Assembly: GCA_013115125.1 (NCBI GenBank)
Contig: JABANN010000111.1
Location: 1-64,000 of the forward strand
Reading direction: 5' to 3'
DNA length: 64,000 nt
Source of the DNA: Perkinsus olseni
Taxonomy: Eukaryota
Shown here: piece by piece, positions 1 through 3,000 of the stretch
Layout of the letters: the number at the start of each line of letters is the position of its first letter
Position numbering within the stretch: position 1 is the first letter of the stretch
Made by a program: the position numbers

Positions 1-3000
1 CGTGGCCTAATGGATAAGGCGTTGGTCTTCGGAACCAAAGATTGTGGGTTCGAGTCCCACCGAGATCGTTTTTTAGTTTCGAGGTTTCTGCTATGCGTTG
101 GTGTTCGTTGGACAAGCACTCATGCGAAGAGTTCCTTGAGGTAATCGTGCTCTCACCGTCCTCCTTTACCGCATCTGCGACTTCCGGACGCGCACTAATT
201 TGCTTGTTACTGCCTTACGCTTGCGTGAACCACGATACGGAGTGTGCATCGTCCAGGAGGTAGAGTAAGCGATTACACGGGTCATGGGTGGATCTGCGTC
301 AGTCACGCAGTTCAAATTTACCACCTATCTCAAGCGGCTATCTCCTGGTTAGGTTTACAGCGGAGTCCTTCCTGAGTTTACGATGCAGGTGACCGAGTTG
401 AGCGGTGGCCCTTCTCTAGCTCTCGAGGTCATCGGCTTTCTCTGGCGTGTCTCTCTGCATTATCAATGCAGGTAAGGCAAGAATCGGCCGTAGAAGCCTT
501 CAGAAAGCTTGTGGGACCGCACGACCCTCAAATTGCTAAGGCCCTGAGACCAGGTGAGGAACCCCTCGACGTCAGCTTTGCTGTGCACAGCTTTTCATTG
601 TTAGCGACGTTGAGGGCCGCCTTTGGTCTTGATCGGGTGAAGAACGCTGTCCATTGTACGGACCTAGAGGAAGACGGTCAGCTTGAAGTGGAGTAAGACG
701 TGAGCACATCGCTGATTCTCCATGCCGTGTCTTGCTGTGGAACATCTTCTGAATTGCACGTTGAACGAAAAGCCTCTCCGATCAACTTGAGAATTTTCTA
801 ACCGAAAAGGACTCAGCGGGTCTCGGCTGACCGCGAGGTTGTGAACGGTCATTCAGTAGTTGCAAAACGATTCTCACGAGACGTTGTCATTCCCGAAGGT
901 ACTTCTTCCGGATTCTCCCAGCAGCAGCGGCCTCCAATGCAGCGTTGATGGTCGGGGCTTGAAGAGATGACGGTCCATGGGATGAATTAATGATAGTGAT
1001 GCCCCCGGTATATTGGGTTTTGATGCCGCAACTGAGGGAACGGCGCAAAGCCATTCTTTTTATTCCCCAACTATGGCTGTTCGTCGGTCGACTGTTCTAC
1101 TTTCCAAGCTCGGCCCCTCCAAGGTGGGGGAGCTCTCCTTGCATCATGATTGGTTCGCACTCGTACCACCCACTTAGGGACGCGGACCGCTGACGGCAAA
1201 AAGAGCCCCGAGTCTCCGCAAAGGCTTCGGAAGCATAGGTTTGGGAACGCACACCAAGAAAGGTGAACGCCTCACCGGACGGCGCATTGCGTGGTAGAAG
1301 GGCGCTCCTTCCTTGTCAGGATTCTTCATGATCGATCCAAGGTTCGTGCCTCAGTTCAAGGTTCCTGATCTGTCCGATTGTCCGGTGGGCCATTTCGAGG
1401 CGCGCGGTCATTTCTGAGTCTTGTTCTGTCAGCTGAAGCCGTACGTCTCTCGTCAGACGCCGGTGATTAATAACGCGAGGGGGTTTTGGCCCGGTGGTAA
1501 AATCAATCCATGATGCGAAAAAGGTTTCTGTTAATCGCCTGCTGTGTGTTGTCAATACGGTCAAACCTCAGTCTAGGTTCCAGTACCGCGGGCAGTGTGT
1601 TTCAGTGACCGAGGGGCACTGAGCGGTGTAGTTCAGCTAGAGCGGAGCGGAGCGGAGCGGAGCATCAGCTACAGTAGCTCTTAGGAGTGTCGGGGATGGG
1701 CTCCTGCTGAGAATCACCACCTTACGCAGATCTCACAGCCCATGTCCTACTACGCAGAGTACGATGCGACGTTCATAGCGTGGAGGTCACTGTTTGCAAC
1801 AATAAGCCCCCTTAGCGACTAATGGGCCCCTCCGCTGTCATTGAGAGGGTCGAAAAGAGTCGTGTCGATGTAGAAGGCAGCAACGTGCAAGCCGGGGATG
1901 AGTTGACGGCATGGACGAAGCATGAAACCATCTGATTCGGACGATGAATCGGCTGATCCGCTGGTGTGTGAGATTACCACCTCTTTGCACGTAGCTATGA
2001 GCTTGGCTGCTGGTGTCCCCAAGTGACGCAGTGGTGTCATCGCTCGGCCATAACATCAGAAGGGGATGCCGACTTGGCCCGAGCCTTCCTTTCCTCTGAG
2101 ACCTCGGAGACAACTGCACTGACCACCTCGACGCCGCTTCCGGTGGCCTTGGAGAATGTCGGTGCAGTTAGAGTCTTTGATGAGAGCCTCTGGCTGTATC
2201 TTCGGAACAGGAAAGCTGCGCTTCACCTCATTCCCGCTGAGATCGTCGTAATGTGGACAGTCCATTAGCTAAGTCCGTTCGCTTTGATAGGTCGACCTGT
2301 CTGCCTTTTCACGGCACTTTCCCTAGTCCAAACTTATTGCTATCAAGCTACTGCGAGTTCTAGCCGACGCGTATTTTGCAAGAGGTCCGATTCCCTTAGC
2401 AGTAGATGAATCGGACTAGAAAGCTCGAAGAGTCTTCAGTCGTCTGGTAGAAGTTCAGATTGACACTCCCACAGACTGTGGGCCACAGTCCCTCCCAATG
2501 GTGGCGAACTTCGCCTTCTCCTAGCTCGTAGCCAGTCAGCTAACGATCGTCACAACAGCTCGAGATGTTGGCGAGTTTGTCCACGTTGGTGGAGTCTACA
2601 ATATTACCTACAATGTGAACGAGGACCATAAAGTCACGTTTGGCTTCTTTGTGGCGATTCGAACTAAGGACTCGTCTCTGCGTTATCCAGAGTATCGCTA
2701 CCAACGCTTCAACTATGGCTTCCTCTGTTGAAGGTTGGGCCTCTTACCTACACCGTGGACTTCGGCGAGCTCAGTGTTAGGCCGTGGTATGAGTCTATCG
2801 AGCAGCAGTTACTGCAGGCTGGTGCCATCGTCCCTGCCAATCGCTATCCACCTGCTGGCATTCAGCATGGCGACTTGACTACTTTGACCTACACAAGCGG
2901 TGATAGTCTGCACACAACCTTCCGTAACAAAAAGGTCAACTTCGTTAGAGTCGGCGGGTTGTTGGCCCCTGGTGTCTTCGAGTTCGCCGAGACCGTGGCT

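Follow-up and report, generated by a model that had tools for sequence, protein, structure and literature searches.

How can an intron be spliced when a gene for a transfer RNA (tRNA) occupies its 3' end so tightly that only a run of T residues and the acceptor dinucleotide separate the tRNA from the exon? This question is raised by the first nucleotides (nt) of a 64,000-nt stretch of DNA from Perkinsus olseni, positions 1 to 64,000 of the forward strand of contig JABANN010000111.1 (GenBank assembly GCA_013115125.1), which was analysed as a whole and is referred to here as the window. The window opens inside a tRNA-Arg gene, which is followed by six T residues (T6), an AG and an exon of the NDK7/NME7 gene. 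A previous reading of the DNA letters by themselves (the sequence-only reading) had proposed that the RNA polymerase III (Pol III) terminator of the tRNA gene doubles as the 3' splice site of an NME7 intron. The account that we favour, and that we consider fairly probable, is that an NDK7/NME7 intron carries one copy of tRNA-Arg at its very 3' terminus, on the sense strand, that T6 is shared between the tRNA gene and the intron, and that this arrangement arose as a tolerated side effect of the dispersal of tRNA genes.

The tRNA gene was identified by its fit to the tRNA covariance model. Rfam model RF00005 matched positions 1-68 of the plus strand with 56.4 bits (gathering score 29, E-value 1.8e-9) across model positions 6-71 of 71, and the cloverleaf of these 68 nt conforms to the model. 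In the alignment the anticodon loop reads CUUCGGA, giving the anticodon UCG and thus arginine, the 3' strand of the acceptor stem is CGAGAUC (61-67), and G68 is the discriminator base. The end of the gene at 68 therefore stands where the sequence-only reading had put it. The T arm holds a B-box-like element, GGTTCGAGTCC, read from the sequence at 47-57, which agrees with the B-box consensus and counts as an internal B box. The RF00005 match was flagged as cut at its 5' end, the first 5 nt of the tRNA being outside the window. The gene had been called intact, which is not demonstrable from the window, with those 5 nt beyond its edge. The cut also accounts for the failure of ARAGORN to call a tRNA at 1-68. 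Folding of positions 1-140 gave a z-score of -0.56, a value that carries no information because the 5' acceptor strand is missing from this sequence.

A low-threshold Rfam scan of the window for more tRNA-like fragments returned just the tRNA-Arg and a tRNA-Ser(GCU) at 6340-6421 on the minus strand. The latter gene is complete (62.9 bits), and its 5' end is preceded, at a distance of 16 nt, by an acceptor-like CCCTCTTTCAG.

The tRNA-Arg(UCG) at 1-68 is one copy of a multi-copy nuclear family. Contigs of four runs were placed on the window: X7, which is guessed to be RNA although no run listed for the stretch is on record as such, and X1, X8 and X9, which are of DNA type. One 74-nt contig of X9 (record 21, depth 2525) consists of 5 nt followed by window positions 1-69 with 0 mismatches, and the family repeat unit therefore begins exactly where a 73-nt tRNA should begin. 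In X1 the contig depth summed over 1-40 was 20,647, a figure that is no copy number, versus approximately 200-400 in the flanks. Among the 21 loose contig ends listed, of 25 in the DNA-type runs, approximately 8-10 different 3' flanks diverged from the window at 68-74. The other tRNA-Arg copies have between 0 and 6 T residues directly after the discriminator, several of them with further T-runs within 20 nt, and several carry an acceptor-like 3' flank in which a pyrimidine run is followed by CAG within 20 nt. A link to Dada transposons was considered and rejected, as the Dada families of P. marinus target the tRNAs for Ile, Leu, Gly and Tyr, not Arg, and nothing transposon-like follows the tRNA-Arg gene in the window.

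Use of the AG behind T6 as a splice acceptor was revealed by a single spliced contig. Record 11 of X7 (622 nt, depth 35.2) lies with 0 mismatches on 76-138, 351-425, 470-551, 603-692 and 899-1007. Each of the four parts that it skips begins with GT and ends with AG, and a further 203 letters of the contig precede position 76. The last 30 of these upstream letters, read by eye in the frame of the exon, contain nine full codons, eight of which are identical to residues 246-254 of the P. olseni NDK7 protein model P0003, and their final G together with G76 and T77 forms the codon of Gly255 of that model. Because the G at 76 is common to both sides of the joint, the canonical cut falls at 76/77, between AG and T. 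Two proposals of the sequence-only reading, that this acceptor is used and that an NME7 exon exists upstream of the window edge, are both corroborated by this junction and by the matching codons in front of it. In addition, any intron that ends at 76 must contain positions 1-76, and the tRNA-Arg gene is therefore intronic and in sense orientation.

The spliced joints of record 11 had a depth of 0 in the three DNA-type runs (X1, X8 and X9), and X1 contigs cover the introns. Together, these data argue that record 11 was derived from a transcript and not from a DNA retrocopy. Neither a retained-intron form nor an alternative acceptor was found among the nine X7 contigs, which, being contigs, cannot show absence.

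The DNA-type runs supported the same order of elements. Contigs that pass from the 3' part of tRNA-Arg through T6 and AG into the exon were found in all three, namely X1 record 2 (55-257), X8 record 14 (45-146) and X9 record 23 (44-106), so that in three runs from two studies one molecule carries the T-run together with the exon and the 3' part of the tRNA. The order of tRNA, T-run, AG and exon was kept in all of the listed DNA-run contigs that reach the exon. X1 also contained a second form of the locus, which has G>A at 84 and in which a contig joins 92 to 228 across letters that are not known. X8 and X9 showed differences from the window at 84, 118, 147, 152 and 155, as well as a deletion of 1 nt at 169. 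These differences within 84-228 suggest divergent haplotypes or strains.

Based on sequence similarity, the host gene is assigned as an NDK7/NME7-type flagellar nucleoside diphosphate kinase, the last third of which is within the window. The Pfam family NDK (PF00334) matched 472-693 (E-value 1.7e-6, 28.4 bits against a cut-off of 27), and a protein search with the same segment had its first matches in Perkinsus (P. marinus, P. olseni and P. chesapeaki). The translation of the joined window exons is identical at 98 of 103 positions to residues 256-358 of P. olseni P0003, and at 90/103 and 89/103 to the proteins of P. marinus and P. chesapeaki, respectively. These identities place the window in a Perkinsus species or haplotype nearest to P. 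olseni. P0003 itself has N-terminal matches to PF25364 and PF06565 (PH_NDK7_N/DM10) and two NDK stretches. The residues that had been quoted for the first exon (FEVSAM...) are indeed those encoded by 78-140.

By contrast, an earlier gene model that stopped at the TAA at 694-696 was overturned, since according to record 11 this TAA is intronic and coding continues to the TGA at 960-962. The tail that is gained after the 692/899 junction begins with a YFF motif, which was present in all five of the more distant relatives inspected, after their 'LEVE'. The deposited NDK7 models of P. marinus (P0002) and P. olseni (P0003) end at the in-frame TAA just past the donor at 692/693. These models were probably cut short by reading into the intron, and the transcript would add a C-terminal tail starting with YFF.

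With the acceptor and the host gene in place, the T-run between them and the tRNA could be considered. T6 directly follows the discriminator G68, as expected of the terminator of a type-2 Pol III gene, and the succession of T6 at 69-74, AG at 75-76 and the exon from 77 was exactly as the sequence-only reading had laid it out. The plus strand of the 64,000 nt has only 23 runs of six or more T residues, and this site is the sole occurrence of the octamer TTTTTTAG, which argues that the position of T6 directly behind the tRNA is not due to chance. Furthermore, none of the five confirmed nearby introns (141-352, 428-471, 554-604, 693-898 and 1124-1177) has a T-run of five or more at its 3' end, from which it follows that T6 belongs to the tRNA gene and is not typical of intron design in this region. 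For the host intron T6 would then be a feature that was co-opted or merely tolerated. Three of the T-runs in the window, at 58302, 58309 and 58316 on the plus strand, start exactly 7 nt apart and form a short T-rich tandem repeat (58302-58321).

As just T6 and AG lie between the tRNA and the exon, the branch point of the host intron has to be in or before the tRNA-Arg, as had been deduced in the sequence-only reading. Within the tRNA itself AG occurs four times, in the D stem (17), the variable loop (39), the T loop (53) and the acceptor stem (63). The five confirmed introns showed no strict branch-point consensus; several have 'NAT' 9-13 nt before the AG, in numbers too few for a test.

We propose the following sequence of events. 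Pol III would transcribe this tRNA-Arg copy like its siblings and stop in T6, while RNA polymerase II (Pol II), transcribing the host gene, would read through both the tRNA and T6, and the spliceosome would take T6 as the pyrimidine tract of the NME7 pre-mRNA. T6 thus probably serves both, as the stop for Pol III and as the pyrimidine tract for the Pol II pre-mRNA. Two ways of placing the branch point are conceivable. It could be just upstream of the tRNA, in which case the cloverleaf would join its own ends, loop out 73 nt and hide the four AGs. Alternatively, the branch A could be in the 3' acceptor strand or the T arm, at A65, A63 or A59, which are 11-17 nt before G76, and the tRNA would therefore have to be unfolded in the pre-mRNA. 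The neighbouring introns of 44 and 51 nt show that this spliceosome works with short distances. Splicing probably survives by one of these two routes.

The view that the arrangement is probably incidental comes from base rates; tRNA genes dispersing in a genome rich in introns would have left it as a tolerated by-product, and it would not be a regulatory device. Hundreds of tRNA genes have been reported for P. marinus (PMC3706591), whose assembly of 87 Mb has 23,654 genes, as given in a passage of PMC7789003. Where tRNA genes number in the hundreds to thousands and introns are short, some copies will have their end within a few bases of an acceptor. In Caenorhabditis elegans, according to passages of PMC4999229, 44% of 609 tRNA genes are intronic, a share that does not exceed the chance expectation; of these, 56% lie on the strand of their host.

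Comparison with relatives did not bear on this question. A metagenome scan with P. olseni NDK7 gave 80 loci, all with an identity of at most 57%, and a tRNA inside the NDK7 match was found in 0 of the 80; at one locus (L049) a tRNA-Cys was outside the match. When the metagenome loci with split matches were searched by tblastn, none was broken at residue 254/255. These loci are uninformative on Perkinsus, given that they come from relatives too far removed from it and that many of them lack introns. The exact 29-nt junction pattern had no match in prokaryote genome contigs.

Several points weigh against the account that we favour. The window includes neither the first 5 nt of the tRNA nor the donor of the host intron, and the length of that intron is likewise out of view. 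That X7 is RNA is a guess, backed solely by its spliced contig. Under the rule that a contig must have 31 letters on each side of 68/69 to bridge it, no DNA contig does so, the tRNA being a repeat, and the contigs that start at 44, 45 and 55 fall short. Transcription of this copy by Pol III is something that we infer, as are the location of the branch point and the neutrality of the arrangement, the last of these from base rates. Finally, the tRNA-Ser(GCU) has no run of four or more T residues within approximately 150 nt downstream, only runs of three, and the terminator rule for Pol III in this organism may therefore differ from that of the textbook.

The best of the alternatives, although an unlikely one in our estimation, is that Pol III does not transcribe the copy, be it a relic or repressed by Pol II read-through, so that the copy would now be intron sequence only and T6 a pyrimidine tract only. 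The 5' end of the tRNA-Arg is out of view, and losing one of tens of identical copies would be costless; reduced Pol III occupancy has also been described for intronic tRNA genes on the host's strand in C. elegans (passages of PMC4999229). However, an old relic would be expected to have drifted, whereas all 68 visible positions of this copy equal those of X9 record 21, the fit to the covariance model is good, and both the B-box-like motif and the terminator are intact.

It is less likely still that the tRNA gene interferes with the splicing of its host. Under this proposal, which goes back to the sequence-only reading, occupancy by Pol III and TFIIIC, or folding of the tRNA and its cutting by RNase P and RNase Z, would compete with the acceptor 8 nt downstream, and NME7 output would be tuned by tRNA activity. 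The geometry makes this physically plausible, as no branch point is possible between the tRNA and the AG and RNase Z, cutting at 68/69, would break the intron 8 nt ahead of the exon. Passages of PMC4999229 describe lower Pol III occupancy for intronic tRNA genes on the host's strand in C. elegans, and an effect of host promoters on them. Yet the only transcript form seen is the correctly spliced one of record 11, the nine X7 contigs include neither of the other forms mentioned above (with the same limit on what contigs can show), and a single locus of this kind is expected by chance where tRNA genes are very many.

We give a comparably low standing to the idea that the cloverleaf is itself part of the splicing signal. 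Its folding would set an upstream branch point approximately 10-15 nt from the AG and mask the four internal AGs, and the terminator would supply the pyrimidine tract. The acceptor-like flanks of the other tRNA-Arg copies fit this idea, yet an AG so near a tRNA is also expected by chance. If it were true, tRNA genes could settle repeatedly at the 3' ends of Perkinsus introns, and tRNA folding or the access of RNase P and RNase Z would be coupled to the choice of 3' splice site.

Production of the tRNA from the host intron, with RNase P and RNase Z excising it from the Pol II pre-mRNA or from the lariat in the manner of intronic small nucleolar RNAs, appears very improbable. The sense orientation of the tRNA inside a spliced intron would allow it, Sagi et al. 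raised the possibility for intronic tRNAs in a passage of PMC4999229, and the sequence-only reading had also suggested release of the tRNA from the intron. On the other hand, the gene has its own terminator and a promoter-like B box, as do family copies with unrelated flanks, and NME7, as a flagellar gene, is an unlikely source of a housekeeping tRNA. Lastly, a mis-join of the assembly at the tRNA, a high-copy repeat of the sort at which short-read contigs break, is hardly credible, as the three DNA-run contigs named above start within the 3' part of the tRNA and continue across T6 and AG into exon sequence, and the transcript has its acceptor exactly at the AG after the T-run.

The features of the tRNA-Arg gene and its host within the window are collected in Table 1.

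Table 1. Coordinates of the tRNA-Arg gene, the T-run and acceptor, and the exons and introns of the host gene NDK7/NME7 in the window.
Feature	Position	Strand	Basis
tRNA-Arg(UCG) gene, positions 6-73 of 73	1..68	+	Rfam RF00005
T6, expected Pol III terminator and only pyrimidine tract before the acceptor	69..74	+	Sequence reading
AG acceptor dinucleotide of the host intron	75..76	+	X7 record 11 switches to the window at position 76
NDK7/NME7 exon; base 77 completes a Gly codon, 78-140 encode 21 residues	77..140	+	X7 record 11, translation, P0003 alignment from residue 256
Intron, 212 nt, GT..AG	141..352	+	X7 record 11 joint
NDK7/NME7 exon	353..427	+	X7 record 11, P0003 alignment
Intron, 44 nt, GT..AG	428..471	+	X7 record 11
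NDK7/NME7 exon	472..553	+	X7 record 11; Pfam NDK on 472-693
Intron, 51 nt, GT..AG	554..604	+	X7 record 11
NDK7/NME7 exon	605..692	+	X7 record 11
Intron, 206 nt, GT..AG, with in-frame TAA at 694-696	693..898	+	X7 record 11 joint 692 to 899
Last coding exon segment, stop TGA at 960-962	899..962	+	X7 record 11; 3' untranslated region to at least 1007

The next gene downstream, at approximately 1040-1520 on the plus strand, has a 54-nt intron (1124-1177) and is covered by X7 contigs at a depth of up to 810. When translated, its exons match C-terminal sequence of P. chesapeaki model P0005, and P0005 therefore looks like a fusion of NDK7 with this downstream neighbour. The precomputed Pfam list of P0005 includes PF09809, which we take to be the mitochondrial ribosomal protein L27 family.

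Further along the window, two open frames of 275 codons on the plus strand (3715-4542 and 13800-14627) were 76% identical (209/275), with the last 155 or so residues almost identical and the first 120 diverged. No Pfam match was found in either. They look like a paralogous pair approximately 10 kb apart, and the uneven divergence perhaps reflects gene conversion in the 3' part. In the segments 59435-60085 (minus strand) and 16745-17395 (plus strand), one frame had a weak match to the reverse transcriptase family RVT_1 (27.6 bits, below the cut-off of 29.6), and another matched the eukaryotic aspartyl protease family PF00026 with 24.8 bits. The RVT_1-matching frame may be a remnant of a retroelement.

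In terms of known systems, the locus is an intron-hosted tRNA gene, a known class, with an unusually tight geometry. Antisense Alu poly-U tracts become the pyrimidine tracts of new 3' splice sites, and the two cases are alike in that the T-run of a Pol III-type repeat is used as a pyrimidine tract. However, the Alu T-run is the complement of a poly-A tail and gives rise to a new exon, whereas in P. olseni the T-run is a terminator on the sense strand, and the boundary of a conserved, constitutive exon follows it. The indexed part of the literature, which excludes supplements, yielded no report in which a tRNA terminator acts as the pyrimidine tract of a constitutive acceptor.

The intronic tRNA genes of Caenorhabditis, as passages of Sagi et al. 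2016 (PMC4999229) present them, resemble the P. olseni locus in being standard Pol III tRNA genes within the intron of a Pol II gene and identical to other copies of their family; the P. olseni copy is on the same strand as its host. The P. olseni locus, in an alveolate parasite, differs from the Caenorhabditis cases in that the 3' end of the tRNA is 8 nt from the exon, the terminator makes up the entire pyrimidine tract and the branch point is shifted; splice-site distance is not treated in those passages.

The human nimtRNAs, in the passages of Hoser et al. 2020 (PMC7722341), are tRNA look-alikes that enhance splicing; they are likewise cloverleaf RNAs in introns whose position relative to the splice sites matters, and RNAs of this type are bound by a protein network of the 3' splice site. 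They differ in their mitochondrial origin, in not being processed as tRNAs and in having their strongest effect 50-100 bp after the 5' splice site. The tRNA-Arg, unlike them, is nuclear-type and multi-copy, has its own terminator and lies at the 3' splice site. It was not assigned as a nimtRNA-type element, since membership of a multi-copy family and possession of a terminator speak for an ordinary nuclear tRNA.

A precedent for a folded element within the last part of an intron comes from yeast. There, introns in which the branch point is far from the 3' splice site depend on RNA structure between the two, which reduces the effective distance and conceals AGs (passages of PMC4381068, citing Meyer 2011 and Gahura 2011). 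The same principle would apply in P. olseni if the branch point is upstream of the tRNA, with 73 nt looped out and four AGs occluded, except that the structure would be a complete tRNA gene instead of a simple hairpin. What sets the P. olseni locus apart is that a Pol III terminator is all that lies between a tRNA and a constitutive exon, and that the branch point must be in or before a sequence that is able to form a very stable RNA fold and is possibly bound by TFIIIC and TFIIIB. This is a single locus, and its functional readings come from sequence and contigs. As such it offers a natural test of whether a tRNA fold can bridge a branch point and an acceptor, of whether Pol III occupancy or cleavage by RNase P and RNase Z disturbs co-transcriptional splicing, and of the way in which tRNA genes, numerous in Perkinsus, disperse across a genome rich in introns.

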